Shown here: piece by piece, positions 20,356 through 62,700 of the stretch
How the letters are laid out: the number at the start of each line of letters is the position of its first letter
Position numbering within the stretch: the first letter of the stretch is position 1
DNA from: Phoronis australis
Lineage: Eukaryota; Animalia; Phoronida
Length of the DNA stretch: 64,000 nucleotides
Direction: 5' to 3'
NCBI GenBank assembly: GCA_002633005.1
Contig: NMRA01000001.1
Coordinates: forward strand, 1,896,938 to 1,960,937
Made by a program: the position numbers and the translations under genes
The notes under the pieces: model-generated
Seen by the model: the letters and a program-made list of their open reading frames with translations, nothing else
Database searches by the model: none
What the model was told of the DNA's origin: nothing

Positions 20356-21109
20356 NTGACGGTGCATAGTCAAAACACTTACCCATTCAGAAGGAATTGA
20401 CATTTAGCGCACGTAACTACCGTACTTGCAGCTGCATTGATGTGGTAGGTCACCGACTCCGGTCAAAATTTGCGACTTAAGAGTAACGGATATCAAACGG
20501 GGCACCAAGTACGTTAACTTGAAAGCATTTCAATTTGCCAATAAAAATGTCGTTTTACACAACCTACGCGGGTGCTCCCGCTGCCAGTGCTCTAGAGCCA
20601 GTCTGCAACGAACGCCATTACCCGAGTATGGTAATGTTTTTAAGCTCTTTGGATTCAACTAAACATGGCTACGGTGCATCTTCAAACCTCTTGACTAGTA
20701 TTGAAGAAATGCAAATAATTGGTAGATCGTTCCCTAGTAGTCAGTAAGAGCAGACAGAAACCGATGATCACCGTCATCGGGTAGTGCAAGTGCGGCAACC
20801 TTTCCGGCTGCCACTCCGACAGTCACTGGCGTCCTGCTAATCCTTACAGATGTTCAATGCTTTTACCTGACAATGAAATTGACTGATGATTCTCTGTTAG
20901 TCAACTTTTTATTTGCTGTAGCCGCATATTGTTAATTCTATGAGTCGTATTCTGACACTTCGGGTAACTATAAGTGGCACAGAATGAAGTCAACGCGAAA
21001 AACAAAGTTGTACTGTTCAAAGTGGTTCTCTGTCGCTCAAACAGAAGTCGAACTGTTCACCAAGATTTTTATGGTTTGATGGTAAAGATTTTGAATTTCT
21101 GAAAATGTC

Positions 21110-21422
21110 AAATATAAAAAGGTAAATAAAACAACATGGATCAACTGAAATTTTCGGATGTAATAACTTCCTTTGTCAACAGAAACAGAAATAAAGTAAA
21201 ACCAAACACTATATGACAATTGACATTTAAGATATGGTGTAATGAACGTGATACATTTTTGTGTAAAAAATTCAATGACATATTTTGAGAAGTTTTTATG
21301 TTCAATCCATGAGGTTCTATTGTATTGAGCTTGTCTATCCAATATTGTTCTCTTTTGAGTCTGTGAGGGGCACTGGTGTGTTGGAGTTTTTCTATTATTT
21401 GTACAGAAAGATCTTGAATATT
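21110..21422 (-). mobile_element. 5'-truncated Penelope-like element copy (GIY-YIG C-terminus plus 3' pLTR)
   Basis: Near-identical to ~58105-58402. Encodes NIQDLSVQIIEKLQHTSAPHRLKREQYWIDKLNTIEPHGLNIKT. Confidence 0.9.
21145..21182 (-). ncRNA. Minimal hammerhead ribozyme variant (U3-A8) in Penelope pLTR
   Basis: Minus strand reads CTG-TTGACAA-A-GGAAGT-TATT-ACATCC-GAA-AATT-T-CAG: stem I CTG/CAG, core UUGAcAA, stem II with one mismatch, GAA plus palindromic AATT stem III. Homologues at 16594-16632 (+) and 58147-58186 (-). Confidence 0.55.
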
Positions 21423-21836
21423 AGTTTCAAAGAGCGACCAGTCAACTGGATGTCGATCTTTGTTGATGACTGAGTACGTCATTCCCAAGCACAAGGCAAG
21501 GCGGAATGAAACACGGTCACATTCGATATGGTGGCAATTAAGGGATACTGACTCCTTTGCACATTTTTTTTCATCCCTTGAGCTTTGATGCAAACAAATA
21601 AACAATGATGATTGTGAACTTGGTGAATGTTTACTGAGTGCACATACTCGCTTATATTGGCTACCATACTTCCCATGCGGAGAGTGTTGGATGAAACTTC
21701 GACTGTATAGTTTCGGCTGTGTTTCAAAGATAGTGAATCGGACGGTTTCTTGCATTATTCAAAGTGAATAACGCTCACGTTAATAACCCCAATCAGTCAC
21801 TGCAAGATTTTCCCATTATAAGTTCAGTTCTCATCA

Positions 21837-38449: not shown

Positions 38450-41400
38450 TCATGAAGATGCAGCCAGAGCCAGTGTTGGCTTGACTCCAGGTACTGTGTT
38501 CAACTCATCCACCTTAGTTCTCTGTATGTGAAATGCGGGTGTCACCCACTGTCCACATGGACACCGTTCGCCAACCCAGTTGAATGAGCCTAGCTTGCCA
38601 TCACATTTGGGACAATTCAACTAAAAGTACACAAAAGCCATTTTCCAACATGTTATTCAAGCTTACAAAGTTCAAATTAGCATGCCGTGGTTTTGAAAAT
38701 TTTGCTAATTATCTATAACTTAAAATAAGAACAGAAATGGTTGCAACTTGTTTATTTAAGTCTGCTTCAAACACATGAACAGCCTTGGTTTTGCATCAAG
38801 TTTCACAAGTTAAAAGTAAAAACATGCTTGTGAGATTATAATTCAAATTCTAACCTTGACATGCCTTTGAGACAAGTTTACATTCCAACCTACAGATTTT
38901 GTTTTTTCTTTTGGTCCTTGACATTTGTCCTGAAGTGTCAAAATCTGTCAGGACATTTTGAAAGTCAGCCAGACAAAATTTGCCATTGGAGTATGGTGAC
39001 CAAACTTTGGCTCAATAGTGGAAACCAATGAATTTGAAAGGAGTGATTTTTTGCCATGAATGGTCAAGTTTGTAACAAACATGATAGGCAAAGGGAGCGA
39101 ATTCTGTCTACACTATTACCACAAACGAATCGGCCAAATGTCTGGACTAAAGTAAAATAAATCATACACTCTGAAAATAAATCACACCCAGTCGAATGGC
39201 CAATGCTTTACAAAATGTCTACTAACCCTGACTTACCTTTCCTTCAATCACAGAAATACAATTCTTCATCCACTTTAATGGTTCAACAAACAATGACTGC
39301 CTACAGGTACCGCCCTCGCATTCTATCCCATCGTGCTTCATTACTTTCAGCCTCCAATCAAACGCTGCCTCACCAGCACCAATACTGTGGTCCATGACAG
39401 ACCCCGAGCGAAACAAGACTCGTCGGCATCTCCTGCACTTAAACGTGTGTCCATGACTCACATTTGGGTTCACAGCAGGATCAGCCGTCATCATGTCCTC
39501 AGGCACATCACAGACGGACTTTGCTGAAGGAGAGAAAAAACGTCAAATAATTCCACTTCAATACTACAATTGAGTCTTTGTGTCTACCGCCTTATGCAAA
39601 AAACTACAACCAAACACAAGCCTAAAAAAAGCAGCGATATTTTCCTTCTGTAAATAATTGGTCCATTCATTTTAGATACACCGGCCACAAGGTAAACCAA
39701 AGTTAAGAAAGCAAAATGTGTATTACGTGATTTTTATCCCAACCAGTTCTTACCTATTTGAATCTGTAAAGACAACAGGGTCAACTTAAACCTCTTGAAT
39801 GCCCAGTGTGCTGGATCCACCTTATAGTTCATAGACTCATAAATTTGCAGTTGCTTCATGAACCCATCATTGGGACTAGAATACAAACAGACGTAATACA
39901 ATACAACATAATACAATACAACATAATACAATACAACATAATACAATATAATGTAGCCAACACATTACACCCAACAAAACCAAAAAGAAACATATTGTGG
40001 CATTTGAACAAAGATCCTTACTGGCAAATCAATTAAAACTAAATGTACAATCTTCATTTTGTCCTGCCCATAAATCCTCATTTGACAACTACAATGTCTA
40101 AATATTCTTTATTCACAAAAGAATAATAGAAACAAGATGGCATTGTTAAAAATTTTTGGTATTTCACGACCAACCAATTTCCCTATTGCGAGGAGGTTCA
40201 GACTTCTCAACATATATTTTACAACTGCTTCTGCATTAAATAAAGTTTTTAACTTACGTATTGAACAGTCTTCAAATCAAGTTTTAGTTTGTTTCTTTGG
40301 CAGAGGAAGTGAAGTCTTCAATACCATAGAAACTCCTGCTCAATACTATATTTCTACTTCATAAAGGCATGGGTCTCTGTTTGAGACTGTCAACATTAGT
40401 ATACTTAAAATCTCAATAACATAAGTTGTCATTAAAATTTTCCATGTAGTTAAGCCTATAAGTAGATGTAAATATAAACTTACTTATTCAGTTAGAGTGG
40501 TGCAAGTGTGAATCAATGTATGACCGTCCTTTCCCTTACACTTCCTTCCACCCTTCTTCTATAATAATCTCACGTCAATTTTACATCCAGTCACAAGTGT
40601 GATTCAACATGATCATTTGTTCTGTATTATGTATTGTTATTTTTATTGTAAGGGCACATAACTGGGGCCATCCAACCCCAGTCATATTCACTAAAATGGT
40701 TTCTGGGTAAATAAAATGCCCAAATAGCCATTGAAGTAACTAACTGCTCTTATTCATACTCGTCCCAATAAAAACATGAGTATGTACACGCATAGGTACA
40801 GATATATACAAGAAGTACAGGTGTGATATTTAATAGTTATAGCTACAGTGCACAAGTGACAAAATGCTACCTGTAACATTAAAGAGAATTACAAACAAAA
40901 ATTAAAGTTAATCATTCAAATCTTCCAAACTCCCTATAATAGTTGTCACAAAGCAATTAGCAGTGTCTCAACCAGACACTGGGTTTGTACAAGCAACGAC
41001 GGCAAAAGGTTGGCATGAAACACAGCAGTAACTTCAACGAACGCAGGCAAAAATGGATATCTTAAAATCACCTGATATCTGGCTTTAACTTCTTCACGTG
41101 TTGAAAAGCATCACTGACTGACATCTGTGAAGTATGCATCAAATATCCTATGGCCACCGTGGCACTACGGGAAACTCCATGGCGGCTACAAAGATAAAGA
41201 TGGATGTTAGACGACGACGTGATTGAATAAAGGAAAGGTACCACAAAATATGTCAGGTGGAATAGATTAACAATTTAGGTAGACTAGATGCAGCTGCAAT
41301 ATTACGTTATACAACCAAACCTTTCAATAATGTTGGTTTTAGGCCACACAATTTCAATAATGTTGGTTTTGGGCCACACAATTTCAATAATGTTGGTTTT

Positions 41401-44400
41401 AGGCCACACAATTTCAATAATGTTGGTTTTAGGCCACACAATTTCAATAATGTTGGTTTTAGGCCACACAATTTCAATGAAATTGACAAGTGAGCCTCTA
41501 CTGCAAGGTTCGAAAAAAACCTAACAAGTTCCGTAAGAATGACATTTGACAGGATTGTACAAGGTTATTTGATACAATATTCAGTTTCTGTTTAATGTTA
41601 TCATGTATGTAGACATACAAGACCAGGCTGGGTAATTTTGTAATAAACTGAACCATTCAGCTGAACCCATCAAGCTATGCATACTTTCTAACGTCCTGCG
41701 AATCGTCAACATCACATCTCCTGTTCATGTCATTCAAGACGCGTATTAAATCATTGACTTTGTTCAGTTAAAAATTACAAAGAAACGACAATCCACTTGC
41801 TGACTGCAAGATAACTAAGAATGCTTTCACCTTTCGCATCACTCTCCCTGGCCAAGGCTGATTGAATCAGTCTATTTCATTATTGGCATCTGACATTTTA
41901 AACACAGCATAAAAAATACATGGAAGAGATGTGTTAGTTTCCTAATTCACCAACTGTAGCAATATGACAAAAATTGTGATTCTTGCATGACACAAGAATC
42001 ATTCTGGCGCATGCATTTGACAATAATGAGTTACAAAGAACGCTTCACTTGTGTCAAGTGTGGTCACGACGAACAATGCCTAAAAATTTTTCAACAGCTC
42101 TTCTGGAATGTAAGGTAAGAATGACACGATTGGTTAATGGTGTATTCCCTGGAAACGAGACGGGCTCATTAATAAAATATAGCACATATATATGTATATG
42201 TATATCTACATGTACATGTATATTTTGGTAGTAGACCTTCTTTAATACATGTTTCATTGAAAAGTAAGCTGTTCTTGGCCTTAGATAGTTTGTTCAACAA
42301 AGTTTCGTATTGTCTACATAAATGTCTTTAGTCAGATGGCAGTTGAAATAGTAGATCACCGAGTGTAAGTGGAATCACAAACACAAATATATAAGTATAT
42401 ATAAAATAAAACACTGTGCAGAACATTTCATAGTAAAACACTTGCTGTACTTCGACTAAACTTCAGTCATCCAAGACAAATGAATTTAAAATTATAAACA
42501 AGAACAATGACTTTAAACACGAATATAAGGAAGCATATATAAGAGCGCAATTTCTTTCACAAGGAATTGTCATCGGAACTAAGCTACTATAAAATGTTGT
42601 AAAATTTAATGAAATACATAGGTATTACAAAACATGGACAGTATTTATGTAACAACAAGGTACGATGGAACCAAGTATCTTGGGAATTTATGTAAGGAGT
42701 TTCAATTTTTATTATTAAAGCTTCGACAATTTTCAGATGAAAGATATCCCGTTCGAAATACCTAACAATAGTATTGTCCACGTTGTCAGAACAGGACATT
42801 TTCTTTTTGTGGAGTGTTTGAAAGTGATCTTTAATGGAACCATTTTGCAGATGCATAGATAACAGGAGAGATAAAATTCAAGTTGTATAGCCAACATATC
42901 TTAAACAATCAGTGTTAGAACGAATACATTGAACAGATAAAACAATACGAAAGTTTGTTGAACAAACTATCTAAAACCAAGAACAGCTTACTTTTCAATG
43001 AAACATGTATATGTATTTCTATATGTATATGTATTTGTATACGTAATTGTATATGTATATGTATTTGTACATGAATTTGTTTATGTATATGTATTTGAAT
43101 ATGTAAATGTATTTGTATATGTACATGTATTTTGTAAATAGAGCTTTCAGTTTTCCCTACACGTATTCAAACATGGTGCTGCATCATGTTTGAAAAATTT
43201 TGCACCATGTTTGGAAGTCTTGAGCAATATTTGAAAAGCTCTGAGCCATGTTTGAAATCTAAAGCCACGTTTAAACAGCGTGGGTTTATATGATTCATAC
43301 GACAAGTGATTGAAATAGATTGCATGGTGGTATTTAATTCTAATCTGTTCTTTTGCTTTGTAAAACCAATAACAGCGTGTTCAGCAAGTGAAAGTATTGT
43401 GAAACTCTACCGTCGTTGTTTCTGAGATCAGTAGAAAAGAAAATTTGGATGCAAAAACTTGACGCACAAATTACAGGGCTTGGAATGAAAAAAAAAACAT
43501 TTCCAGGTGATGCATCATTCCACAATAAATAGGCTTATGTGGTAGAAATATTTTTGGTTGTAAAATTTAATAGAGACAAAAAAGAGCAAACTGGCAATCA
43601 AATAAGAAGAAATCGAAACCAAAAAAGAGGAAGACCTCTTAAAAGAGGAAAATTACAAGCCCTGAAATAATACCATGTTTCAATTTTTGAAAGAGAGAAC
43701 CATGCGCCTTCGGTTCACAGAATATGACACCTACCAATGAACAAGAGCCTTGCCTCCACTGTTACGAGCCTCATTAAGAAAGTTAGCACATGAGTCAAAA
43801 TGGCTGAGTAGGTCATCCAGTTCTGTATCACAGGCTTGTATCCACTTACATGTATAGATATCCTGGCCAAATAAAGCAATTTGTAATTCACATAAATAAC
43901 ATCTGAAAGAAGCCGTGGTTAGACAATAGACATTACAGTAACAAATTCTTCAATTTAGGAGAAAAACAATTGCTAAAATTGCCATATTTCTATTTTTCAG
44001 AGGCTTACCACATTGTTGCAAATGCTCAAAGTTTTACCAAGTAATGTTCGGTAATAGCTACGCCATACAAATCGTGCTAAAAGCAAAGTAATTTTCCAGA
44101 AAAATTGGTTTTATTGAGAAATTTACCAAAATGAAATTACACTTGTCCAACAAATTGTGTTCCAAACTGAAGAAATTTTACTGTAACGTTATTAAACAAA
44201 AATAAAGCCTGTAAATGTCTGTTGAAATTTGCACATGTTAGTTTTATCCAAACTGTAAACTCAATACACAGGCACACAAAATACCATTATTGCTATGCCC
44301 TATATTGGCATAAACTTTCACTTTCATTGGCCTGTTCACAAAACGGCAGAAAAAATCTGATAGTCACCAATGCTACTACCCCTACAGCATAGACAGCCCA

Positions 44401-44603
44401 CTGAGAAACATTTCCATTTCTACAAGAAGAAATGTCAAATTCCCATTCACTCACTCCCAACTACAAACCTGTGTACATTTCTTCAGTGGCCTATCATCCA
44501 CCGTCAATATGTGAGTCACTCCAAGAGCCTTCAACTCATCTCCTCGTTTAGTAACATCCTTCAGGCACCCCAGGTACAGGCCTTCAACAAGTTTCACTGG
44601 CAT
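38450..44603 (-). CDS. DUSP12: Dual specificity protein phosphatase 12 (YVH1), 6 exons
   Basis: Minus-strand exons 44603-44469 (MPVKLVEGLYLG...GVTHILTVD), 43862-43735 (DLLSHFDSCANFL...ALVH), 41185-41072 (CRHGVSRSAT), 39875-39754 (PNDGFMKQL), 39523-39237 (FKCRRCRRVLF...CRQSLFVEPLKWM) and 38620-38450 (LNCPKCDGKLGSFNWVGERCPCGQWVTPAFHI). HCx5RS catalytic motif plus the YVH1 zinc-binding domain; phases are consistent. Confidence 0.95.
39895..39952. repeat. 15-bp tandem repeat (AATACAATACAACAT)n
   Basis: About 4 copies, next to the DUSP12 exon 4 acceptor. Confidence 0.9.
41323..41478. repeat. 30-bp minisatellite, ~5 copies, in a DUSP12 intron
   Basis: Unit TTTCAATAATGTTGGTTTTAGGCCACACAA repeated almost perfectly with no spacers. 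Confidence 0.95.
42246..43010 (-). mobile_element. Penelope-like element fragment (second family) bounded by inverted repeats, inserted in an (ATATGT)n microsatellite
   Basis: Minus strand YVGYTT*...MHLQNGSIKDHF...LKIVEALIIKIETPYINSQ, the C-terminal half of a GIY-YIG domain. 42246-42313 is the inverted copy of 42942-43010. ATATGT-type repeats lie on both sides (42187-42222, 43005-43130). Confidence 0.75.
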
Positions 44604-44690
44604 GCTGAGCCGGAATAAGAATTACACCGTATAATAAACTTAACGTCCAATAATTGAAATCAGTCTTTATTAGTAAAAACTGGCAACACT

Positions 44691-46696
44691 CTAAGCTTGG
44701 GCCTTTTCTTGGTCCACTTTGGTGTAAACAGGCTTGATCTTCTCTTTGAACTCTTTCAAAGCATGCTGCCTATCAAAATACTTTACCTGGAAAATGACAA
44801 AGATTTTCGTTCTCATACAAGCTAATTTCAAAGGCTTTTGTATTGGGAAGTTAAAAAGGTGGTTGAGCATGGGCGATTAAAAATTCTTTGATATGAGTGG
44901 TACATATACAATCGACTGTCAGCCACAGGTATGCAAATTGCGCGAGTATTAGGAGTTATATATTCATACTTGGATGGTATTAAAAACCTAAAAGTCTTGA
45001 GTGCACTTATGGTGAAAGGCGCTTTACCAAACATGACCGTTCAAAAGTATATTTAGTCAAGCGTGGGTGTTAACCTGGAGGACAATGGTAAGATAAATCA
45101 ACATGGAATGACCAAAGTCACCTTCTACAAAGTGATGATAAGAAACATAAATAACACTCAAATTGTATGTATTTAAAAAGCAGATACAAGAAAATGATAA
45201 TTCTCCACTTATTTTGCACAAATAATAGAATTGTGACTGTCTTTTTTCATAGTCTGATTACTTGACTGTGAATCATGGTAAATTCACCAGAAGTTGTTTT
45301 AAGACATCTAAACAGAACAATCCATAGTACCGTAGTAACAGAAATAACCTAGTACACAATATTCTCTAATATACATACATCAGAGATGATAGTAATGAAT
45401 CATCATTTGGAAAGCTACTATAAGAGAAAATTTGCTCCTTCACTTTGAATTTAGAAGGTAAAAAGTTATATTTGTACCAAGACAAATACTTGAGGAATTG
45501 CAAATTTTCTAAAAACTGCTTTGTTTTGTTACAAAATATGGGACAACAATAAAAACTATCATTCTGTACTTCACAGATGAAAAGCCTACAACCTTCCTCA
45601 GTTTCTTGAATTACCACTAAATGCCGACATTACAGTTCTATAATTAGAATTAGTGCATCACAAAACTGGTCAAATTCTAACACAGAACTACATAACAAGG
45701 GCAACGCGTAGCGTTAAAATGCGCTCACGGCTGCACCGCAAACGGCGTGCTTCTAGGGGTGTTGATTTGTATCATAAAAAATGGTCATTAGACGGCACGG
45801 AATACATTGGACCCACCCAAAATGGGAAGGTGCCGTCAACCAAATTTTATGAAAATCCGCCAAAGAATTCCTCAGATACAAAGGCAAACATAAAGAAAAA
45901 CAAACTGCCATCAGGAACCACAGCAGTAGTCGAATCCGTCCATCTGCCGTCAAGTTAATAGCGGGTAACGAGTGGGAGTGCTGCCTAAGGGCTATATGTG
46001 AAATCAATAACTGGTCACGTGACTACATAGGTGCAGACGAAAAATCTAGTAGTCACTATGAAAAATGGCTATGACCACGTGGAAGCCATCTTTACAATAT
46101 TGCATAGTTAACAAAAACATTATATATACTTCCAAAATTCCTCAAGCAGGGAGGTAGGTTAGCCGAGCAGCAGCGGTGAAAATAAATCATCCCTTGTGAC
46201 AGTGGGCCTGTAGAAGGTCTCAAAGCAATGCATCGACCTTTCTGTCCCAGTTTATCACAAAATTCAAACATGACTTTTCTACGTCTGTAACCATTAGTAA
46301 CCTTACTGAGTGGACAGAAAAAATGGCAGTGAGATAATTGAAAATTCTTGCTTCGATTTTTCTTTTCGAATTTTCAGTCACAGCATCAGAAGTTGTATGA
46401 GTTGTTTTTTGTAAAAAAACTGCAAAATTTCATGGGGTTTTGGAGATAAAGCAGCAGATGACAGCCGGACGGACAGGGATGATGGCATAATGCACTCACG
46501 TGTAAACATGTGGGCACATGAAAAGGCATTACAACGTAAAATCACAAACCCAACTCTTGGGACAAAATTCTTCATATTTGTCTCTGAATTCTTTGCACTC
46601 GGCAGAATCCTCCTTATTGACATCCGCACACTGAAAGAAGCGATCTCGAGCTGTATAGCATTTTTCACGAGCATTCTTTAGTGGTGGAGACGACAT
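44691..46696 (-). CDS. COA6: Cytochrome c oxidase assembly factor 6 (COX6B-like CX9C-CX10C protein), 2 coding exons, 80 aa
   Basis: Exon 46696-46550 MSSPPLKNAREKCYTARDRFFQCADVNKEDSAECKEFRDKYEEFCPKSW and exon 44786-44691 VKYFDRQHALKEFKEKIKPVYTKVDQEKAQA*. CX9C-CX10C spacing and the CPxSWVKYFD motif. An acceptor at 46716 implies an upstream non-coding exon (candidate donor at 48763). Confidence 0.9.
45693..46520 (-). mobile_element. HINE/DINE-1-like element (same family as 29660-30930) in the COA6 intron
   Basis: 46430-46520 reverse-complemented matches the 5' end of the 29660 element (ATGTGCCCACATGTTT...GCATTATGCCATCATCCCTGTCCGTCC...CTGCTTTATCTCCAAAA). 45693-45730 matches its 3' hairpin end (AACAAGGGCAACGCGTAGCGTT). 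Confidence 0.7.
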
Positions 46697-47161
46697 TTTT
46701 TCAGAAGCATTCCACTGCAACAAAAAGTGAACTTAAGTCTCTGTGCCACAAGAACAATATTTTCAAAAAGAAAATGAACAAGCTAGGAAAAATGGTATAC
46801 TTTCATAGACCCAGAAAACAAGTTCAATCCAAAGTCCAACTTCAACTCTACAACATCCCCACAAAGTAATGCAATAAAATGTGTGTAAAGCTGAGTGCCT
46901 GGGGTTTTAGGGAACATTTTTGTACTTTGACCACGAATTTGTTGCGAACTCGCCGGAGCAGGACACCGTGAATGGTATTAGAAGAACAATTGCTAATGGT
47001 TTGTTGAAACCCTGTTTTGTATAAATTTATTGAGTTTCGTGTTTGATATGGACGGCTGAAGTGAAGCACCCATGGAATTCCTTGTCAAGAGTGTCATACC
47101 TTGTAGTATTATATATAGTGTATTGGGGATGATCAAAAGCTGAGGACGCCTGTGCCACATC

Positions 47162-48590
47162 CGGTCTTTAGCTCTTCATTTTGATAGAAGTTTTACAGCG
47201 AGGTGACGAGCAGAACTACACAGAAATAACACATAGCCAGGGTAGTTCTGCTCGTCAACTCGCTGTGAAACCTGTATCTGCATGTAGAGCTAAAGACCCG
47301 ACAGGGTGCATGCAAAATCTGGGAATCAAATAACACTCACCTTGCCCGTTAAACCGTTGGAAAACAATCTAATAAATTTCATTTTCTTGCGTAATCCCCC
47401 ACCTTTTCTAACAAAGAAAAGTTATGTTGTCGTATTGAAAACAGTACGCTCGTGACACACGTACACACCATTTCCTAAATTTTTTCGGGAAATGATGATA
47501 GCTTGGCAGCAGCAAAATTACTTCTGAAATTCGGTTTTTCAGTGTCAAAATTCTAAAAACTTGCAACTTATAATGAAGTGAAACCAGTTCCGATAATTTG
47601 TTGTGACATGTACGTAACCTCGTGAAAGAACAACTGTTGAGTGAAGAATATGCGAAAAAAGAAATTGGCCAATAGGCGACACAATATTTCATGGCGCCGA
47701 AAGTTGTCGCTAAAGATCGCTCCACAACTTCAGCAGTCATTTTTTCCAACACCATTAAGTAATCTAGCTTACTCAAGGAAGACTGTAGTTTTTAATGACA
47801 CTAATTTTGGGTCAGATTTTATCTTACCACTTTTTGACCCACATCTGCGCAAAGCTGTATGTTTAGTATACAGTTTTTTGTACCAAGGCTAGCTATTGCC
47901 TAGCCAGCCAGCTAGCAGTATGGAGACTGATGTCAAAATACAGCTAGGTACCACTGTGTGTATTTCTTCAGTAGACCCCAAAATTGCACACAGCCAGGGT
48001 AGTTCTGCGCGTCACCTCGCTGTGAAACTTGCATCAACATGTAAAGCTAGAGACCAGACGGGGTGCATGCAAAATCTGGGAATCAACCGACACTCACCTT
48101 GCACGTTACAGCCGTTTAAGTAAAAAACAATGCAATAAATGTCATTTTCTTGCGTAACTCTCCGCCTTTTCTAACAATGAAAAGTATGTAGTCGTTTTGA
48201 AAACAGTACGCTTGTGTCACGCGCACTCGCCATATCCTAAATTTTTGCGACATCTCTCGGGAGATGATGATAGTTTGGCAGCAGCAAAATTTCTTCTGAA
48301 ATTCGGTTGTTTGATATCAAAATTCTATAAAAACTTGGAATGAAATGAAACCAATTCCAATAATTTGTAGTGACGTGTACGCAACCTCGTGAAAGAAAAC
48401 AGTTGATTGAAGAATCGGTGAAAAAGGGAAAGTTAACTGGCCAATAGGTGATGCAATATTTCATGGCGCTGAAAGCTGTCGCTAAAGATCGCTCCACAAC
48501 TTTAGCAGCAGAATAATGGTACAACGCCATTTTTTCCAACACCTTTAAATACTTCAGACTGTAGTTTTTAATGATACTAATTTTAGCCAA
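47162..48590. repeat. Two diverged direct copies of a ~560-600-bp repeat (47234-47810, 47992-48590) preceded by an inverted partial copy
   Basis: Both copies start AGCCAGGGTAGTTCTGC and share GGGTGCATGCAAAATCTGGGAATCAA and GTCGCTAAAGATCGCTCCACAACTT. 47162-47219 is inverted relative to 47242-47299. Confidence 0.85.
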
Positions 48591-48763
48591 GGCTGCAAGT
48601 GCAAACCACAACTCCACAAGCACAAGCAAGCTGATCACAACAGATAGCACCACTTGGGTGTTTTCTTATACATTTAGTCTATACATTCCAACACCATACT
48701 TACACTTGAAATTCGTAGAGCTTCAGTCAGACCATACAATGTATCTCAGATACGTAGACCTAC

Positions 48764-49196
48764 TTGCAAAAAAATACAGATCAACAACGTTCTAAGCACG
48801 AGAAACGAAAACGGAAGTGACCGTAGTGCAGTCTATTTTTATAAATGCGCACAAAATGAGTAACAAAATAATTATGAATTATTTAACAAAAATCATAATA
48901 TTCATCAATTAAATGTTATTGTTTTCAAAAAATATAAGACTTTTGGTACGTTGAAAGCTATGAAATTTTACAGAAAGCGAATAATCAAAAACCCAGTTTG
49001 AACGCATAAATATTTCCATAGCAATTTCACATGCGCGGACTATTTTGAAAAATGGCGACTTACTGGGAAGTGCCCTGCTCATTTAAAACAGAATGTGTTA
49101 TTTCGTGGATAGCTTTTTCCCAGCCAGTGGAATTGTTTCAAAGTCTCATTTGATGAAGCAGTCGGCGTGTTCACCGTAAGCCCCTAATTACCAATC
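48764..49196. promoter_or_regulatory. Putative bidirectional promoter between COA6(/DUSP12) and NAA30
   Basis: The genes are divergent. ETS-type CGGAAGTG at 48812, YY1-type AAAATGGCG at 49049, and a minus-strand donor AA|GTAGGT at 48764/48763 that could end a non-coding first exon. Confidence 0.55.
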
Positions 49197-52100
49197 ATGG
49201 ACATTGCTCATATGTCGTCTGATCTCGGAAATACTGAGCCATCTGTAGGTTCGTTGCCGTTAAATGTTGCACAGACAACCATATCGAAGTCATCAGTTGA
49301 AGGCAATGGCGTCATGCCAAACGGCTGTGTGAAAATTTTACCCAATAATGACAAAAGCTATAAAGACAATGACTACCGAGATGTGGACCAGTGTTGCAAA
49401 ACAAGCGATTTATGCAAAGATAAAACAAGTGGATGTGTAAATCAATCACTACTGGTGGACAGTGCCAGTGGTTGTGGGGATGATCATGAACACAAGTTAA
49501 AAGATGATATTGAGGAACTGACTAGTTGTATATCCAACACCAAAGTAACTGATGAAGTGATTACAGAGGCTGGCCAATCTTCAACAGATGAGGAGTGTGG
49601 CATTAGATACGCTGTTTATGTGTCGGAGCTACAGATGCCTGATATCATAAGACTGATTACTAAAGACTTATCAGAGCCATATTCAATATACACATACAGA
49701 TATTTTATACATAATTGGCCAAAATTATGTTATTTGGTAGGTCCTAGTGAGGTCCGCAGGTGCAATGATTCCCACAACTCTAGTTTCAGTTGCTAACTTC
49801 ATGTATGACCCTAGAAAAAGTGCAAATTTGGCTGTGAAACATATCTCAGAAATAGCAGACTAGATTTATATGAACCCTCACTTTTGCACAAGGGGTTGTC
49901 AAAATATAATACTTATATGATTTTCATGAAAAAAGTCAAAGGTCTGATGAAACAAAATTGATGATTTAGAAAAATGTAACCGCTTTTTTCCTTTCTTCAT
50001 TCAGATTCATGTGAACCAGAATTTGATTACTGTGAACCATTGTTTAGCTATCAGCGCATAGGCGGATTTAGGGGGGGGGGGCCCAGAGGGCCCGGGTCCC
50101 CCCCCNNNNNNNNNNNNNNNNNNNNNNNNNNNNNNNNNNNNNNNNNNNNNNNNNNNNNNNNNNNNNNNNNNNNNNNNNNNNNNNNNNNNNNNNNNNNNNN
50201 NNNNNNNNNNNNNNNNNNNNNNNNNNNNNNNNNNNNNNNNNNNNNNNNNNNNNNNNNNNNNNNNNNNNNNNNNNNNNNNNNNNNNNNNNNNNNNNNNNNN
50301 NNNNNNNNNNNNNNNNNNNNNNNNNNNNNNNNNNNNNNNNNNNNNNNNNNNNNNNNNNNNNNNNNNNNNNNNNNNNNNNNNNNNNNNNNNNNNNNNNNNN
50401 NNNNNNNNNNNNNNNNNNNNNNNNNNNNNNNNNNNNNNNNNNNNNNNNNNNNNNNNNNNNNNNNNNNNNNNNNNNNNNNNNNNNNNNNNNNNNNNNNNNN
50501 NNNNNNNNNNNNNNNNNNNNNNNNNNNNNNNNNNNNNNNNNNNNNNNNNNNNNNNNNNNNNNNNNNNNNNNNNNNNNNNNNNNNNNNNNNNNNNNNNNNN
50601 NNNNNNNNNNNNNNNNNNNNNNNNNNNNNNNNNNNNNNNNNNNNNNNNNNNNNNNNNNNNNNNNNNNNNNNNNNNNNNNNNNNNNNNNNNNNNNNNNNNN
50701 NNNNNNNNNNNNNNNNNNNNNNNNNNNNNNNNNNNNNNNNNNNNNNNNNNNNNNNNNNNNNNNNNNNNNNNNNNNNNNNNNNNNNNNNNNNNNNNNNNNN
50801 NNNNCCGACCTCCCCCCATTCGGTGCTATGGGCATCTACAATCGTGGTTCAGTTTGCGCAAATGTTTACAGCCGGACAAAAATGTTGGGCCCCCCCTTGT
50901 GATATCCTAGATCCGCCACTGCAGCGTACCTTTCTTTTTGCTCAATTTTTACAAAAGAAATGCGGTTACGAAATCCAATTAATGACATGTTGGTAATAAG
51001 TCAAAAATTTAATTCTGCATGCTTTGTACTGTAAGAAAATGTGTTCTTTCATTGAGTTGATAACTATAGTTTCCTTTATATAGATACTCAGATTTTTGGA
51101 CATGGTCCTACATAACCTTGAAGTCATTAAAACTATACTAAACGTACTACAAAACAGTTAACTGACAACTAAACCTTAACTACTAAGTTTATAGCTAAAG
51201 TCAGTCGCATGCCCACAAACGTCTGTTTTTGTGCGCAAAATACATTTCCGGGCTGATCAAGGATTTTAATTAATAGCACTTTAAAGAATATTTCAAGAAA
51301 TGTTACCTTGCTAAAACAGTTTTAAACAGTGGAACGTTAGTTATTTTTACTCGGCACTGCGACTGCAAGATTTTTCAAAATGGTTTACTAAAATTCGAAA
51401 TCATTAGGTCTATGCCATTCTATTAATTCTTTGAGTATAAAAACTGGTTCTAATAATTAATTAAAAACACAATTTCAAAAGCAAGCTGGGAGTTCTTGAT
51501 GCGGCGACTGTTTAGTGTAGGTCCAGAAGAGATAGTGCATAAGTTTACTCTACTTTGAACGTTTACTGATTGAAATGCACATTCTCCAAGATGGTTTCAT
51601 GTCATCTAATTCCAAGTTTTCCTTGTGTAAAGTTAAGTTGTGACTTATGTGGAATTATTTGATTCGAGTTGAGACCAGTCTTTGTATATTTTGTTGATTT
51701 TACTCCTTGGAAAACCAGGATCTTTAAGCGATTGTCATATTCTTATAGGTTGACGAACACATTTAGTGTTTAAATCTGGTATAACATCTGTCTTCCGTCA
51801 AAAACTAACTTTTGATTTAGACCTCTTGCGCTTACAAAACTGACCTGTGCTTGCTCCTCATTCAGGCAAGTGATTTCTAAGCTTAAAAGATGTGATACTT
51901 CATTGTTGAATGAGATCATGTGTGCGACGCTAAGTACTGCTGCAACACACCAGTCGTGATACTGTACTCACTCTCTTCCTGTTGCAAAGCAACAGCTTTG
52001 ATACTGTTCCTACTCTCTAGCAGCAAGGAATTTCCTAAGCCCAAAAATATTTAGTTTGAGAAAGGAACGCGTTCAGACCAGCTTTTATTCATAAGTTGTT

Positions 52101-55100
52101 TTGCCTGCATAAAACCTGCATACAATCACCATCATAAGTCTTTATCGCCTGTGCTTATTTTCTACGTCTCGTTACAGGCATATGATCAAGAAAGGTGTGT
52201 AGGTTCCATTGTGTGCAAGTTAGACATGAACAAGAAAATGGTGAGACGCGGCTATATCGCTATGCTGGCGGTAGACAAGGATTATAGACGGCGGAAAATT
52301 GGTAAAGTTCTGTAGCCATGTTGTGTTAAGAACACTTTCTTTAAATTCTTGGGTATTTCTTATTATTAACCAATGAAATAATTCAAATGAATAATTGATC
52401 TTAAAAATTGATTGCAGCTCCCTGTGAACTTTGCATTTTTACAGAATAGGGCTTGACACTTAACATAACATCAACCTGTCCAATTCCAAATCGCCAAACA
52501 GGAAATGAAGTCGACAAAACAAGAAATCCCCACGAGGCCTCCACAAAGAGGCGTAGTTGGCAACAGCCAAAAATGTGATAAGCTAGATACTTGAACTGAA
52601 GACCCGGTGAACTCTATGAACATCTGCCACATCACTGAGGTCACCCAGTTGGTTTCATTTTGTCGAACTGAAAGTAAGGATTGCCGTGTACTCAATAGTG
52701 ACCAATTTCTTTCTCGGGCACAATATTCCACGCGGGCTCATGTGAGGCCTTTGGGCAGAGGCAGATGATTAGCACCCATGCATGACTCGTGAATGAGCCT
52801 TCCGGATTTTGCCAAAAGTTTTCAACTCCCGTCTTAGTATTTTGAGTGTATGCTCTGATGTGTTTGTGGTGATTCGAGATTTTTACCTAGTCACCAACCA
52901 AGATCTAAGATCGTTTTTGCAGGATATAGGATGCGAAATTGAGCCCTGCAAAATGAGTCTCAAAGTAATATATTGCGCCATAGATCTTGTATTCCCATTT
53001 TTAATTTCAAGTTAAGTGCGTGTTTGTGTTTCTGTGAGGGTATTTTCATCACTGTCAGGTGTTGTGTTTTCAGCATTTTAATGCAATATTTTTGTGAAAA
53101 TTCGCTATGAAGTACAAAAGCAAATTGATGAATGTGTGTCGAAATTGATGTACAAAATGAGAAGTGACAAATTTTGTGAAGGTTGTGTTTCCGCAGCCTT
53201 AGCTGCAGTTGAGTCAGTACAAAGAGAGGCCCTTTACCTTACCACAAAGATTTGGGCTGCGTTCCCTAGGCCCTAGGTTCTCGCGAAAACGCAAGATGGC
53301 AAGATTGTGCCATGCTTTACAAATGAAGCATGTGATAACACTGTCTTTTCTCACGATTGTAGAATGCAGCCTTGTTTCTATATCCACGAAGTACATGTTT
53401 TGCTTTATGTTTTTTCAGGCTCAAATTTAGTTTTAAAAGCTATCCGTGCAATGGTTGCTGATGACTGTGATGAGGTGGGTGTAATTCTAATGCAACAGTT
53501 TATTCCAGCCTTTAGTCTCCACAAAACATCTTGTTCATACAATTCCTTAAGTTCAAGGAGTATGTAAATACAGCCACATGTAGTGGTAATTTTGATGTGC
53601 ATTATGGTGACTTCATGAAGCAAAAGATTTGTTAACTCACTGTTTGGCCAAAAGGCATAGTTGTTTCTGGTCTGTACCCATGTGCCTCACGATTTAAAGA
53701 AAAGAAACGCGTGCCCGGATCAATTTCAGCTAAGATTTCGGCCTTTATTTTCGAAAGCCAAATGAATGCATGCAAAGAAGGTTTTTTACGGCATAACTTT
53801 TTAAGTCGACCATAATCATCTCAGGGTTGACTTTCAATGACTCACTCCCTACCCCACCCCACTTTGGCTCATCTCAGGTGAATCTCTTTTGAATAATGGA
53901 CAACAACCGCATCAATTTATTAAAAAAAAAACAAACCAGAACCAATTTTGCTTTTTTGACCTTGTGCGTGTTTTTTAAACACAGCATGAAATTTGATAGC
54001 ATGATAATTAGCATCTTGACATTCAGTTCTCTAAAATTTATTTTTACTTAGATTTTTGTGCACATTTGAGTTCTAACTTTCTTTCAAGCAACCCACTGAT
54101 TACAGTAAAACTTTTTCAGCCTGGGACAGATGGAATTACTAAAATTGCATTTTATGTTTTCAAAGCCTTGCAACTTTGCTTCAAATGCTGATTTTTTGCC
54201 GAATGCTGTTTGGTTATAGCTGTTCTATATGCAGATTGCTAATATCAAAGTAAAATTTCATTGAAAGTAGATATCCTGATTTTCCATTTTCAAGATGTCC
54301 GTTTTTTTGCAAAAAAATTTTTTTTCACGTTCTAAATTTTCAAATTTCGTTTTACTATATAGTAATGATAAATGAAATAGAAATGATCTGGGAATTGCTT
54401 TTTCTCCACTGAATTATGCTGCAGCTCCATTTCACTGATAACTTACTGCATGCCATGTTTGTTGTTTCTCATAACTGGAAAAAACAGCGCCACCTCCTAG
54501 AAGACTGAACAACAACTTGGACACGTCTGGTGCAAAACAACTGATCAATTTGTGGCTGGCATATGTTGAATTTAATGGATTGTATTCCTAATTTCTCGTA
54601 ATCAAAAGTCCAACTATTAGAATTGTAGCAACTGGTACTGTAATGAGGAAATTCAATTCCATTATCACGTAAAATCAGAGTTTCTGTAAAAAAGTCATTT
54701 CAAAAGCCTCTTGTTTGGTTGTAACAGCAATTTTCTTAATTGAGGCTTAACCCAGACATCAACCTAGTCCATTGTTAATCATTCTGGTGTTCTTTTGTCC
54801 GGCATCATGACACATAGGGCTGTTAACTGCCATGGTTCTAAGAGTTACTAAAACCGCTCATCAATGGGTACCAGGGAATCGAAACGCGTCTATTTTGGCT
54901 AATTTTTGTTGCATTTTTTCAGGTAAAAATATTCCAAATTTTTTACAAGGAATTCAATTTCAGAAGCCAAACAGTTCAAAAAATCTGTTATAGTCCATGA
55001 TATATCAATTTATTTTAGCCAGTTTTATTACTTTGAAGCCCTCGCTAACGCTAATGCAGCAATTTCTCTACTCCACAAAATAGGACCTTAGGTCAAATTT

Positions 55101-55908
55101 CTTGATAATCACGCCTTTTGATGATGGCGGAGCCTGTCAAAATCTGCTGAGGAAGTACAACGTGCCTTGAAACGAACCCAGTTTCTAATGTCAGTTTTAA
55201 ATTATAAAAAATTTGACATAATGAAATTTCACTTTTCTGTCATATCAAGTCGTAAACCGAAAACTTTGTGCCAGTGTAGGTGAATTCTGTCGTATCATAT
55301 CTGATTTATAAAAATATTTGTTGTAGCCAAAGCTCGTTGTAACGAAATGTACTTGTACAGTACAGTTTGCTCAAGACTTGGGGAATGGAATATTTTAAGG
55401 AAACAAATATCATAAATCAGGCCAAAAATAACCATAGTTGGTTCTCATCCCTACCCCGATTCATTTCGAAACCTGCGCTCACTGACTAAAGAAATGCCTG
55501 CCTTCATCACTTTAAGCCAAGATCTTGTGTTTTTTGAAAAGCTGCACAAAGGCATGTAAGCAAGGTTTGAAATGTCTGCAAATCCCGAATCGTTTTTGCT
55601 TGCATCAGGTGGCATTTTTTAAGAAGTGAGTAACTTAAACAAACACCACACCACTGTCTCGATTTAAAAAAAAAGGGACCAAGGCCAACCATGCTTTTTT
55701 GGCCTAATTCGTTTTGACTGTAAGTAGTGTAATGCTAACTCTTGATATTTATAAATTGTATCTTTTGCAGGTTGTTCTGGAAACAGAGATCACAAATAAG
55801 GCTGCTTTGCGTTTGTACGAAAATTTGGGATTTGTCAGAGACAAAAGGCTTTTCAGGTACTATTTGAATGGTGTGGATGCCCTCCGTCTCAAGCTGTGGT
55901 TGAGTTGA
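49197..55908 (+). CDS. NAA30: N-alpha-acetyltransferase 30 (NatC catalytic subunit, MAK3), 4 exons
   Basis: Exons 49197-49736 (...[37 protein letters not shown]), 52178-52301 ([10 protein letters not shown]...[20 protein letters not shown]), 53419-53474 ([18 protein letters not shown]) and 55771-55908 ([45 protein letters not shown]). Confidence 0.97.
50057..50921. mobile_element. GC-rich MITE spanning an assembly gap (Ns ~50106-50804), apparent 5-bp TSD
   Basis: TIRs CATAGGCGGATTTAGG / CCTAGATCCGCCACTG. CAGCG on both flanks (50052-50056, 50922-50926). The interior is mostly N. Confidence 0.6.
53644..55706. mobile_element. Possible degraded ~2-kb non-autonomous DNA element filling NAA30 intron 3
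   Basis: Imperfect inverted ends TTGGCCAAAAGGCATAGTTG / CAACCATGCTTTTTTGGCCTAA. A third similar end at ~55419 suggests a nested short copy. Confidence 0.35.
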
Positions 55909-58009: not shown

Positions 58010-59010
58010 ACGTTCATAATGAGAATCACGTAGAAAATATATCTGAAACTAAATAAGGCGATCCAGATCCTCCCAAGGATTCTATTGTTTCTTGAAATGA
58101 AGAATATAAATCGGTAAATAAAACAACAAGAATGGATCAACTGAAATTTGAAATTTTCGGAGGTAACAACTTCCTTTATCAACAAAAACAGAAATAAAGT
58201 AAAATCAAACACGAAATGACAATTGACATATAAGATATGGTGTAATGAAAATGATACATTTTTGCGTAAAAAATTCAATGACATATTTTAAGTTTTTATG
58301 TTCAATCCATGAGGTTCTATTGTATTCAGTTTGTCTATCCAATATTGTTCTCTTTTAAGTCTGTGAGGGGTACTGGGGTGTTGGAGTTTTTCTATTATTT
58401 GTACAGAAAGATCTTGAATATTATGGTTTTTGGAATTGAAATGATTACCTACAGTATCAGAAATGTTTTTATGTATTATGTTAAATCTATGATTACGAAA
58501 CCGAGTTTGTAGATTATGTTGAGTTTGTCCTACGTATTGGATAGAACATTTTTTACAAGTTATAAGGTAAATAATATTGTTGGTGGTGCAATCAGAATAA
58601 TGTTTTATTTCAAAGTTTTCATTGGTTTGGGAAGACTGGAAAAAAGTGCTATCGTTGATGAAGTTACACATTTTACACCTAGTTTTGTTACATTGTGTGT
58701 TGCCAATAGGTTTGTCAGTTTGGTGTATATTGTCGATATTAGCTTTAACTAAATAATTTTTTAGATTTTTACATTTTCTCCAAGAAATTATAGGGGGATG
58801 AGGAAATAGGTTTTTCATTTGAAGGGAAATATGCAGTGTAGAAAGATGTTTTTTGAAGACGTGGCTAATTCCGTTTAAACATGGATTGAACATAGTTATG
58901 AAAGGTATTCTATTAGTAGTATTGCCTTTAGTTTTAGTTCTTAAAGATTCATTTCGAGTAATTGAGCGGACTTTGTCAAACTGTTTGTGTAAATCTTTTT
59001 TGAGGTCAAC
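58010..59010 (-). mobile_element. Penelope-like retroelement, 5'-truncated: linker, intact GIY-YIG endonuclease coding region and 3' pLTR
   Basis: ORF 58288-59106 contains RIPFITMFNP...PPIISWRKCKNLKNYLV, a Cys-rich motif (CNKTRCKMC), NIIYLITCKKCSIQYVGQT...RFRNH and REQYWIDKLNTIEPHGLN. No RT domain is present. A ~30-bp direct duplication (59012-59042 / 59053-59082) marks the 5' junction. Confidence 0.92.
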
Positions 59011-59109
59011 TTTATCTTGAACACCTGCTGTGATAGGTTTTTTTTTTGGAGGTATCTTGAACACCTGCTTTGATAGGTTTTTCTTTTCTTTTATAATGAG
59101 AATCAAAAA

Positions 59110-59560
59110 TGTTTATTGTATATAGGTCTTGGCCTCATAACACAGTTTACATTAAAACTTTACAGTGGATAAAATTTTAGCCCTTGGCACCGTTTCTCTT
59201 GAAATATATAGCGCTTGGCTTTTTAGTTCACAGATTATGACTTTGATTTAATCTAACTACTCTGGCATCATCTGTATATTTGTCAGCAAATTTCTGCGCT
59301 CATCAGCAAGGACAGGCCAGTGACACCTAAAATGAATCTCGTTTTCAATTTGACCAGTGTTGCATATTCCACAAATTCTCTTAATCCTTGATTAGACCCA
59401 CGTGTCGCCTTGTTTCAATGTAAAGCTTGTGTATTGCGCACCTAAAACGAACAAGTATTTAAAGTACTTTCCCTAATTAGGGTTCTAACAAGTACATTAA
59501 TAGCACAATGCAGTTGATATTTAGTCGAATTATTAATTGCAGAGTGCCAATTTTTTCGTC
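59110..59560 (-). pseudogene. LINE ORF2 3'-end relic (C-terminal CCHC-like region)
   Basis: Minus strand LVRFRCAIHKLYIETRRH.../RICGICNTGQIENEIHFRCHWPVLADERRNLL with a frameshift, followed by AATAAA near 59115. Confidence 0.75.
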
Positions 59561-59982: not shown

Positions 59983-62700
59983 CTACATGCAGACGCACAT
60001 TGCCCGTTTACCAGGCTCGTGCTCGTCGCCATTTTCAGACTCGTCATCACTGGATTCTCTATCGTCACTGGATTCATGCATTGCCGACCCGGCTTCGCTG
60101 AACTGTGTTGCTGCATCCTCATATTGGCGAGCAGGTTCATGAATACGAACCTTTGGATGAGTTTCGTCGTCTTCTCCCGGTCTTTGGACGATGTTTTCAG
60201 ACCTTACGCAAGAACATACATCAATCGGACAACATCCAAGCACAAGCCGGCTCGGTTCCGGATTCACAGCCCCGCTTGAAACTGTTTGAGCATGTGTTAA
60301 GTCTGCTTCGGGAATTTCATCAACAGTGTCAGTTACTGGTATTTGTTTCATACAAGAACATACAACTAGCGGAAAACATCCTTGGTCACTTGATTTCTTT
60401 TTTGTTCCGTTTTTATCATTGGCGCATGCTATAGCTTTGAGCTCAGCCGGTTCATGGCAAAATGCCATCCATATTCCGATTAAACATGCCGCCGAGTGAA
60501 TTCGATAAAATATAGCCAATGGGTAGATAATATATGATATGATAAGCCAATGGCTCTTTTCGTAATACTGATCTGGAATGAAGTCACTGGCCGAGACATT
60601 TCTATTGATTTCATATTCCAGCATGGCCCAAAATCCAATGTTACACATGGCGAGAACTCCAGCCCCATGACGGACGAACCATGCCATCTGACGTATCTGT
60701 TTGGCCTTCTCAACAATTTGAATAGTTATATTACGGTCGTGTTCAATGATTTGCCTCTCTTCATCGGTACGTAAGACATCAGAAGTTTTGCGACAATTAC
60801 TGCAATGGCAACTGCAAAGTTTACACACATAGCTGCATAATTGTTTTTTGAAATCGACTGAAGTCAACTTCATCGATTTTAATGATTCTTCGCTGATCTG
60901 CGGAAAAGAGCTTGGCAAGCAGATTAAAATAAATAATGTCTGAATGACGCATTGCACGACGTTTAAAACTGAGTCTGAAATGTACACAGCTTGCAAACTT
61001 CGTTGCGTTGCATCCAGCGCAGTGTGGTTTCCAGCGGCACTGCCATTTGCTACACGGAAAGCCTCTGGCGTTGCTGCAAAGCAAAATCCACTGAGAAGAA
61101 ATGTACCCATTAAAGAAACGAACAAAAGGTAGACGTCTAAAAGCACGTGGTGAGACCGCGTTTTTTCCTCTGCCTGTCTGTCATCAACGTGGAACACACT
61201 TTTGTTCAGACTAAATATCCCCACAATCGACAAGGCCATCATAAGAATATAAAACGCAATTCGCGCTCCATAATAAATAGCGAAGTTAATTNATCTGACG
61301 TATCTGTTTGGCCTTCTCAACAATTTGAATAGTTATATTACGGTCGTGTTGAATGATTTGCCGTTCTTCATCGGTACTTAAGACATCAGAAGTTTTGCGA
61401 CAATTACTGCAATGGCAGCTGCAAAGTTTACACACATAGCTGCATAATTGTTTTTTGAGATCGACTGAAGTCAACTTCATCGATTTTAATGATTCTTCGC
61501 TGATCTGCGGAAAAGAGCTTGGCAAGCAGATTAAAATAAATAATGTCTGAATGACGCATTGCACGACGTTTAAAACTGAGTCTGAAATGTACACAGCTTG
61601 CAAACTTCGTTGCGTTGCATCCAGCGCAGTGTGGTTTCCAGCGGCACTGCCATTTGCAACACGGAAAGCCTCTGGCGTTGCTGCAAAGCAAAATCCACTG
61701 AGAAGAAATGTCCCCATTAAAGAAACGAACAAAAGGTAGACGTCTAAAAGCACGTGGTGAGACCGCGTTTTTTCCTCTGCCTGTCTGTCATCAACGTGGA
61801 ACACACTTTTGTTCAGACTAATTATCCCCACAATCGACAAGGCCATCATAAGAATATAAAACGCAATTCGCGCTCCATAATAAATAGCGAAGTTAATTAC
61901 AGTGGCTAGCAGAGTACTTTTTGGCAAGATGTCAGTAGCGAGGAAAACGATTATCATTAGAATTATTACGAACATTGCACCGCCCACCAATATGCTTCCC
62001 TCCCCGCCTTTGATTTTGACTATGCGGCTGCGTGATAAAGTTTCATTTGATTTTAGAGCCTTGTTTTCACCTTTCTGCTCCTCACATGGTACAACTATGC
62101 CCCACATGTGAAGCATCAACCCGGAGCAAATAAGTGCATACTCTAGAACGAACGGGTCGAGAAACGGTCTCACTGTCATAGCAAATACTTCAATTGTGGA
62201 TGTTAAGTTCGATCCGTTGCATTCTTGTCTGTAATTTCCGTTACAACATCGTCTAAGGCAGTTCTTAATTTCCCGGTCGTCCTTCGATGCCTCGTCTACA
62301 AACACCTTTAACCACAAAATGACGTTTGTTGCTATGATGTGTGTCAACATTAAATAGTTCACGAACTTGGCAAAGAACCTCTTTGTAGAAAACCTGTACA
62401 GAAAAAACAACTGCAAGAATACGAAAAAGAAATAAACCAATAGGTATATTGTGTGCGAGGCCGGGTTTACTCTGTTGCATTGAATAAAGCAGTGGCCTCG
62501 GGGATTATCCTCACGTGTATCTATTAGAAAGGCGACGAAACTGGTTGCTGACGAGAATGCTGTTACTAAACCAAATATGAACGCCACCCTTCGAAGGTGT
62601 AACGGAAGTCTCGCGTGTTCATCGTTGTTGTTCGTGCACAGACAACCCGTGGGTGCAGCACAGATAACTACCATCATCAGCACCACAGCGAAGCACATGG
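59983..62700 (-). CDS. Otopetrin-family proton channel, large terminal exon (5'-partial; split by an artefactual 607-bp duplication)
   Basis: Multi-pass membrane ORF with otopetrin motifs THIIATNVILWLKVFVDE, FLDPFVLEYALICSGLMLHMW, MCNIGFWAM and PLAIFYRIHSAACLIGIW. Acceptor TTTTTCAG at 62708-62701. ORFs 61286-62698 and 59983-61323 merge into one frame once the duplicate is removed. Confidence 0.85.
60686..61898. other. Tandem 607-bp duplication joined by a single N (probably unmerged haplotype overlap)
   Basis: 60686-61291 is near-identical to 61293-61898, with N at 61292 and a handful of substitutions. Confidence 0.9.

Follow-up and report, generated by a model that had tools for sequence, protein, structure and literature searches.

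In this study, we found that two genes on the minus strand, COA6 and DUSP12, meet within a single exon of the window (the whole 64,000-nt stretch of Phoronis australis DNA analysed here, to which all positions refer). The exon is bounded by two splice junctions and holds both the COA6 stop codon and the DUSP12 start codon. Both open reading frames are intact, and the reads show no sign of use of the AATAAA and acceptor-like AG in the spacer between them. That a mature bicistronic mRNA exists is very probable, whether DUSP12 protein is made from it or mainly from shorter mRNAs. The best explanation of the exon, to which we give an even chance, is that COA6 and DUSP12 share one bicistronic mRNA from the COA6 promoter and that DUSP12 would be made by ribosomes resuming scanning past an upstream stop codon. 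The gene parts are as follows.

46550-46696, minus strand: COA6 first coding exon (Pfam COX6B), acceptor predicted at 46714, donor at 46550 read-supported
44691-44786, minus strand: COA6 last coding part, ending in TAG; the whole protein has 80 aa
44469-44786, minus strand: composite exon made up of the last COA6 codons, the spacer and the first DUSP12 codons, with continuous depth in all three raw-read runs
44469-44603, minus strand: first part of the DUSP12 coding sequence; its ATG (44603) has A at -3, and the donor at 44469 is read-supported
43735-43862, minus strand: DUSP12 exon 2 (Pfam DSPc), acceptor read-supported; gene model
41072-41185, minus strand: DUSP12 exon 3 with the catalytic motif (Pfam DSPc, E 4e-10); gene model
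39754-39875, minus strand: DUSP12 exon 4 (predicted); gene model
39237-39523, minus strand: DUSP12 exon 5 (predicted) with the Cys-rich domain; gene model
38450-38620, minus strand: DUSP12 last coding exon (predicted); gene model

The COA6 protein matches Pfam COX6B with an E-value of 8e-16, and a profile search gave 137 COA6-family relatives, among which 2 of the 20 looked up carry the name COA6. A DSPc domain was found in none of 20 COA6-family hits scanned (17 longer ones and the 3 top ones), and word-index homologue searches with the COA6 exon and with a DUSP12 exon returned no matches. The downstream gene model has 6 exons and 318 aa, is stop-free with canonical splice sites, and carries an HCxxGxSRS motif, a Cys-rich tail and DSPc matches on two exons. 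We take this gene to be DUSP12 from its architecture of phosphatase motif and Cys-rich tail, and MKP-4 (CG14211) to be its fly orthologue. The first AATAAA downstream of DUSP12 is at 37684. Its intron 2 contains, at 42245-43130, 69-nt inverted repeats (96%) that are separated by 628 nt and adjoin a degenerate 6-nt tandem array; a 30-nt tandem array is found at 41322-41478.

The spacer has these features.

44604-44690, minus strand: intercistronic spacer of 87 nt, ATG-free, kept in mature RNA by RNA-seq, with no unusual fold
44666-44671, minus strand: AATAAA, 19 nt 3' of the COA6 TAG; no use seen in RNA-seq
44605-44624, minus strand: acceptor-like YAG, its AG at 44606-44605, 1 base before the DUSP12 ATG; no use seen

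By sequence inspection the COA6 TAG lies at 44693-44691, and the positions given in the preliminary description for this codon, the ATG-free spacer, the AATAAA, the AG and the DUSP12 ATG proved exact on re-check. An AATAAA is expected by chance in 87 nt with a probability of ~0.07 and a YAG with at least 12 pyrimidines in 17 nt with ~0.16, and as to U-richness, a T content of at least 40% is true of 23% of 62-nt windows in the same gene. The spacer motifs taken singly are near chance; the genuine feature is the closeness of two genes on one strand. The two reading frames share a frame, 29 codons apart; readthrough of the COA6 stop cannot fuse them because the spacer holds two in-frame TAA codons (44672-44670 and 44624-44622). 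Splicing of the exon at 46696-46550 to 44604 would likewise give no fusion protein, the joint being out of frame as had been described before. The region 44786-44590 showed no structured IRES-like element (fold z = -0.08 versus shuffles), and an Rfam scan of the 64-kb window gave no matches.

Three raw stranded RNA-seq runs with the same species label (X1, X2 and X3) were mapped to 44380-44920, using 18-19% of each run. They gave 22, 27 and 73 reads, respectively, 122 in total, of which 120 aligned at 99% identity or more. All 122 have one orientation: their first mate lies on the plus strand, which is what minus-strand RNA gives in a stranded library. In each run, depth is unbroken between 44787 and 44468 and is zero in the introns on either side; the reads thus represent spliced RNA rather than DNA or pre-mRNA. 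Reads with loose ends at 44787 (5 in X1, fewer than 3 in X2 and 4 in X3) match the end of the COA6 exon at 46550, and those with loose ends at 44468 (9, 7 and 28) match the DUSP12 exon at 43862. Partly aligned reads number 14, 9 and 33, and the junctions account for 14, 7 and 32 of them; a leader, a foreign exon or a poly(A) tail could thus be present on no more than 3 of the 122. By edge depth (2.4), the two unlisted clips of X2 fit the COA6 junction. Inside the exon, no joint, leader or poly(A) clip and no pile of read starts or ends is listed for the 122 reads. A contig run (X4) had no records matched to the region.

The continuous exonic depth over 44786-44469 supports the earlier proposal of a shared transcription unit, and reads cover this interval unspliced, as expected of the unspliced bicistronic mRNA that had been named as one of three ways to resolve it. 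Among the 122 reads, none was seen, and no pair, that joins the COA6 exon junction to DUSP12 coding sequence. Pooled depth climbs from 19.8 at 44760-44778 through 34.8 at the COA6 stop and 50.7 shortly before the AG to 59.2 at the DUSP12 ATG (44589-44607); the stretch directly upstream of 44604 has 82% of the depth found downstream of it. Across the exon, depth roughly triples in X2 and X3 and is nearly flat in X1. The depth at the stop exceeds that at 44741-44759 by 2.5, 4 and 8.4 in the three runs; as derived from depth, ~15 reads begin within ~60 nt above the COA6 stop and, at ~145-150 nt, most reach the DUSP12 ATG.

Two features upstream of COA6 bear on where the transcript would begin.

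48700-49200, strand unassigned: candidate shared promoter region of COA6 (minus) and a presumed NAA30-like gene (plus); CpG o/e 1.19, from sequence
Donors after 48764 or 48704, minus strand: predicted non-coding first exon(s) of COA6, from sequence only

The CpG o/e of 1.19 at 48700-49200 lies above the window's 90th percentile of 1.03, and the values are 0.31 at 44300-44800 and 0.64 at 44600-45100. If gene bodies are methylated in this animal, there would be no promoter-like CpG signature at DUSP12. A plus-strand GNAT acetyltransferase gene (Pfam) lies within 48700-55908, head to head with COA6; we take it to be NAA30-like from its motifs. The region has motifs that we take to be an ETS-like site (48812) and a YY1-like site (49049), which suggests a bidirectional promoter for three genes. 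Within the predicted first COA6 intron, 47148-48508 comprises two diverged tandem copies of a ~765-nt element with blocks 83-91% identical and inverted repeats, which is probably a non-autonomous mobile element. Elsewhere in the window, at 60686-61898, an otopetrin-like gene free of introns contains a 606-nt direct duplication (98.5%), its copies lying on either side of a single N (61292), likely an assembly artefact of two haplotypes. A GIY-YIG endonuclease ORF fragment (58288-59112; Pfam E 2e-9) has a partial copy, 89% identical, at 21096-21758; we take these fragments to be remains of a Penelope-like retroelement. A minus-strand open frame of 794 codons (2772-5156) is TRIM-NHL-like, with B-box and NHL-repeat matches. 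For an exon of a neighbouring SGPP gene, the best named matches come from Lingula (59%) and Arenicola (52%), followed by gastropods, which points to a probable lophotrochozoan of brachiopod/annelid-like kind.

Five transcript models were simulated with 12,000 draws each per run, of which the closest 600 were kept. Fragment length, 3' bias, 5' end and ratios were left free in these rough models with assumed priors, and the two unlisted clips of X2 were entered as COA6-junction reads and the one of X3 as lying elsewhere. The two bicistronic models without a spliced leader (SL) together made up 76, 82 and 71% of the 600 accepted simulations in X1, X2 and X3. The modelling thus favours a bicistronic molecule, with a 5' ramp and extra internal starts fitting alike; it is this depth modelling, for which fragment lengths and the 5' end were assumed, that supplies the bicistronic link. 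In a separate power check, joining of molecules at 44604 was simulated with 600 draws per setting. With at least 75% of molecules joined there, the probability of the data was at most 0.03, which in this modelling excludes such joining as the main route. With 50% joined it was 0.54 for a 22-nt leader and 0.19 for a 40-nt leader, and with a 50% share of a cis-spliced shared exon it was 0.057 for a 60-nt exon and 0 of 600 for a 120-nt exon. By these estimates, a joined minority of up to ~25-50% for a short leader, or ~10-25% for a shared exon, would be compatible with the read depth.

The bicistronic mRNA may be real and the DUSP12 protein nevertheless come mainly from shorter mRNAs that start within the composite exon (~44770-44670). 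On these the DUSP12 AUG would be first or second, and COA6 would borrow the DUSP12 3' end, as in the fly lmgA/lmgB pair. We regard this as possible but short of probable. It would account for the three-fold rise in depth in X2 and X3 and for the lower junction counts on the COA6 side than on the DUSP12 side, and there is just one AUG in the 183 nt above the DUSP12 start; the available text on fly lmg places a 5' end 107 nt above its second ORF (PMC3372440). A bicistronic mRNA with internal starts supplied 25, 41 and 54% of accepted simulations in X1, X2 and X3, versus 52, 41 and 17% for the bicistronic mRNA only. However, the read-start table has no spot where many molecules begin, X1 is nearly flat, DUSP12 lacks a CpG-rich signature, and a 5' ramp with 3' bias reproduces the depth rise too. 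Two monocistronic mRNAs with overlapping ends, COA6 being polyadenylated at ~44650 by way of the AATAAA and DUSP12 having a promoter near 44760, would also give continuous depth, and the AATAAA stands at a normal distance behind the COA6 stop. This arrangement reached 15% of accepted simulations in X3, but only 0.8% in X1 and 4.5% in X2, and we consider it improbable. The preliminary description had called for mapping 3' ends near 44650; the 122 reads, at low depth and with tails that may have been trimmed, show no poly(A) loose end, no end pile and no fall in depth past the AATAAA.

Resolution at 44604 itself had been put forward in two forms, and neither emerges as the main route. In a nematode-like operon, COA6 would be cleaved at the AATAAA and a spliced leader trans-spliced to 44604. 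The layout and the 87-nt gap resemble SL operons, whose gap is ~100 bp in C. elegans (PMC7986045, in the part available), and a bicistronic mRNA with an SL form beside it took 23, 13 and 14% of accepted simulations in X1, X2 and X3, with a median ratio of 0.2-0.3. However, no loose end or leader joint is listed at 44604, the depth upstream of it stays at 82%, the operon with poly(A) and SL was accepted in 0 of 600 simulations in each run, and a leader at the downstream acceptor of most DUSP12 mRNAs was not found, a minority being compatible with the data. According to the available text of 10.1101/2020.05.07.078311, trans-splicing and operons are absent in Dimorphilus, 'similar to other annelids'. 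They are patchy elsewhere (available parts of PMC12460157 and PMC7986045), and the SL lineages listed in the former are others; among the matches listed, we found no literature on SL in brachiopods, phoronids, nemerteans or bryozoans, which does not settle their status. We therefore consider such an operon very unlikely. Only slightly less remote is that a minority of molecules is resolved at 44604 by a short SL, the bicistronic RNA being a slowly processed or alternative form; if true, this would be SL trans-splicing in a lineage where the literature available to us reports none. As unlikely as the operon is that a shared non-coding first exon (~48764), cis-spliced to 44604 and skipping both COA6 coding exons, supplies most DUSP12 mRNA. 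The acceptor has 12 pyrimidines in 17, like the gene's real acceptors (10-15), and candidate donors exist at 48764 and 48704, but such splicing would leave long loose ends at 44604, where none are listed, and the power check for a 50% share speaks against it.

Under the best explanation, one bicistronic mRNA, transcription would start near 48800 in the CpG-rich region common to the NAA30-like gene, and cleavage would pass over the spacer AATAAA and happen after DUSP12. COA6 would be translated from its own AUG. For DUSP12, two short upstream ORFs matter.

46678-46710, minus strand: 10-codon uORF, out of frame and overlapping the COA6 start codon; predicted from sequence
44756-44764, minus strand: final AUG ahead of DUSP12; its ORF has 2 codons and closes 152 nt short of the DUSP12 start

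Seven AUGs precede DUSP12 on the full-length message (46710, 46696, 46674, 46661, 46623, 46575 and 44764), possibly with one more in the predicted first exon, a number at expectation (6.7 expected in CDS plus spacer). Every out-of-frame upstream ORF closes at least 152 nt before DUSP12, and three of those in COA6 exon 1 end at one TAA (44785-44783), just past the read-supported splice junction. The 158 nt directly before DUSP12 are ATG-free where 3.1 ATG would be expected (chance ~0.045, for a stretch chosen after the fact). Some ribosomes may initiate at the 10-codon uORF or at the five other out-of-frame AUGs, scan this 158-nt run and reinitiate at 44603, and reinitiation past the COA6 stop may contribute.

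In-frame AUGs within the first cistron are reported to attenuate the second at fly stoned and snapin (Wall et al. 2005, as cited in the available text of PMC3372440). The COA6 ORF has no in-frame internal AUG; this is weak evidence, many homologues being alike: internal Met is absent in 28 of the 61 COA6 homologues screened out of 137, a filter on length or motif having removed the rest, and many extend into introns. Other translation modes fit less well. Leaky scanning of the green-algal type, marked by AUG depletion and a weak ORF1 start (PMC11892635, in the part available), fits poorly because AUGs are not depleted and the COA6 start codon, like that of DUSP12, has A at -3. For TURBS-type termination-reinitiation, in which stop and start lie within ~20-30 nt (available text of PMC10275272), the 87-nt gap is too long. 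From the arrangement of AUGs, reinitiation is the mode that would fit DUSP12.

The locus agrees with dicistronic loci in the FlyBase sense: two intact, non-overlapping ORFs lie on one strand, the intercistronic region is kept in processed mRNA, and the 87 nt from stop to start fall inside the -34 to 319 nt range of exclusively polycistronic fly loci. That range comes from PMC4528330 (this and the following sources are cited from the parts available), which counts 159 such pairs in flies, or 2.5% of the gene models, enriched in small proteins and often with alternative monocistronic forms. A close likeness is Drosophila Ccdc56 (COA3)-mtTFB1, where a small cytochrome-c-oxidase assembly factor likewise shares one mRNA with an unrelated gene; the two are 88 nt apart from stop to start and annotated as all dicistronic (FlyBase File S1 of PMC4528330; 10.1101/704403), the name Ccdc56 being confirmed by PMC9953451. 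The genes are other ones, however: both fly products are mitochondrial, whereas the second gene here is DUSP12, with five more introns past the first stop. Drosophila lemming (lmgA-lmgB) is alike in its 89-92-nt gap and its small first ORF (85 aa), followed by an unrelated second ORF of 365 aa (PMC3372440; PMC4528330). Its main product is dicistronic; minor forms end in the spacer or begin within ORF1 (PMC3372440). It differs from our locus in being intronless and in the three in-frame AUGs of its ORF1, where COA6 has none. The second lmg ORF is, in the available text, dispensable and without detectable translation (PMC3372440), the latter a point against the best explanation, whereas DUSP12 is an intact conserved phosphatase. 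The Drosophila conserved-peptide uORFs with twin CX9C motifs (Hayden and Bosco 2008), a noted class (PMC2276209; 10.1101/704403), also encode small mitochondrial proteins with a cysteine motif in the first ORF, ahead of an unrelated gene on the same mRNA; a term search of the available text of PMC2276209 did not find the COA6-DUSP12 pair among them. In the polycistronic KSHV ORF35-37 mRNA, short uORFs repress the first gene and permit the second by termination-reinitiation (PMC3561293). This is an analogy for the uORF at 46710, though the viral case is experimentally shown and ours inferred, with five more AUGs in the way. The SL operons of nematodes, tunicates and chaetognaths likewise have genes a short distance apart on one strand, with a poly(A)-like signal and an acceptor-like site between them, but at COA6-DUSP12 no leader or cleavage is seen and the spacer stays in mature RNA.

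A search of 11 of the 12 supplements of PMC4528330, with fly dicistronic lists, found neither MKP-4/CG14211 nor Coa6. No report of a COA6-DUSP12 bicistron was found among the matches listed in a literature search with subscription papers mostly outside it, and a search on lophotrochozoan bicistrons, including the available part of PMC12257675, gave nothing. A gene-order scan of metagenomes left 1 locus of 582 candidates, with only the DUSP12 tail, 280 nt upstream of it and no COA6 match, which is uninformative on gene order. The two best COA6 matches lie on contigs of 1,366-1,433 nt, a length close to the 1,305 nt counted between 46714 and the DUSP12 stop; this is a lead only. A Trichinella gene model (P0053) merges COA6, PRORP and Vps53 domains; these are probably neighbouring genes joined by annotation, and COA6 may be close to other genes in Trichinella. 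It seems doubtful to us that the COA6-DUSP12 bicistron is conserved in lophotrochozoans, with serial reinitiation beyond the seven AUGs yielding its second protein.

In summary, COA6-DUSP12 is likely an added case of the known bicistronic mRNAs of animals, of the fly type and not a worm-style operon. A short gap with an AATAAA and an AG is, by itself, no evidence of an SL operon. With seven AUGs ahead of a conserved phosphatase, the locus poses the question of how that protein is translated, and with five introns following the first stop, of how the mRNA escapes decay. Animal bicistrons headed by a small mitochondrial assembly factor have mostly been catalogued in flies, and this pair would extend them to a lophotrochozoan.
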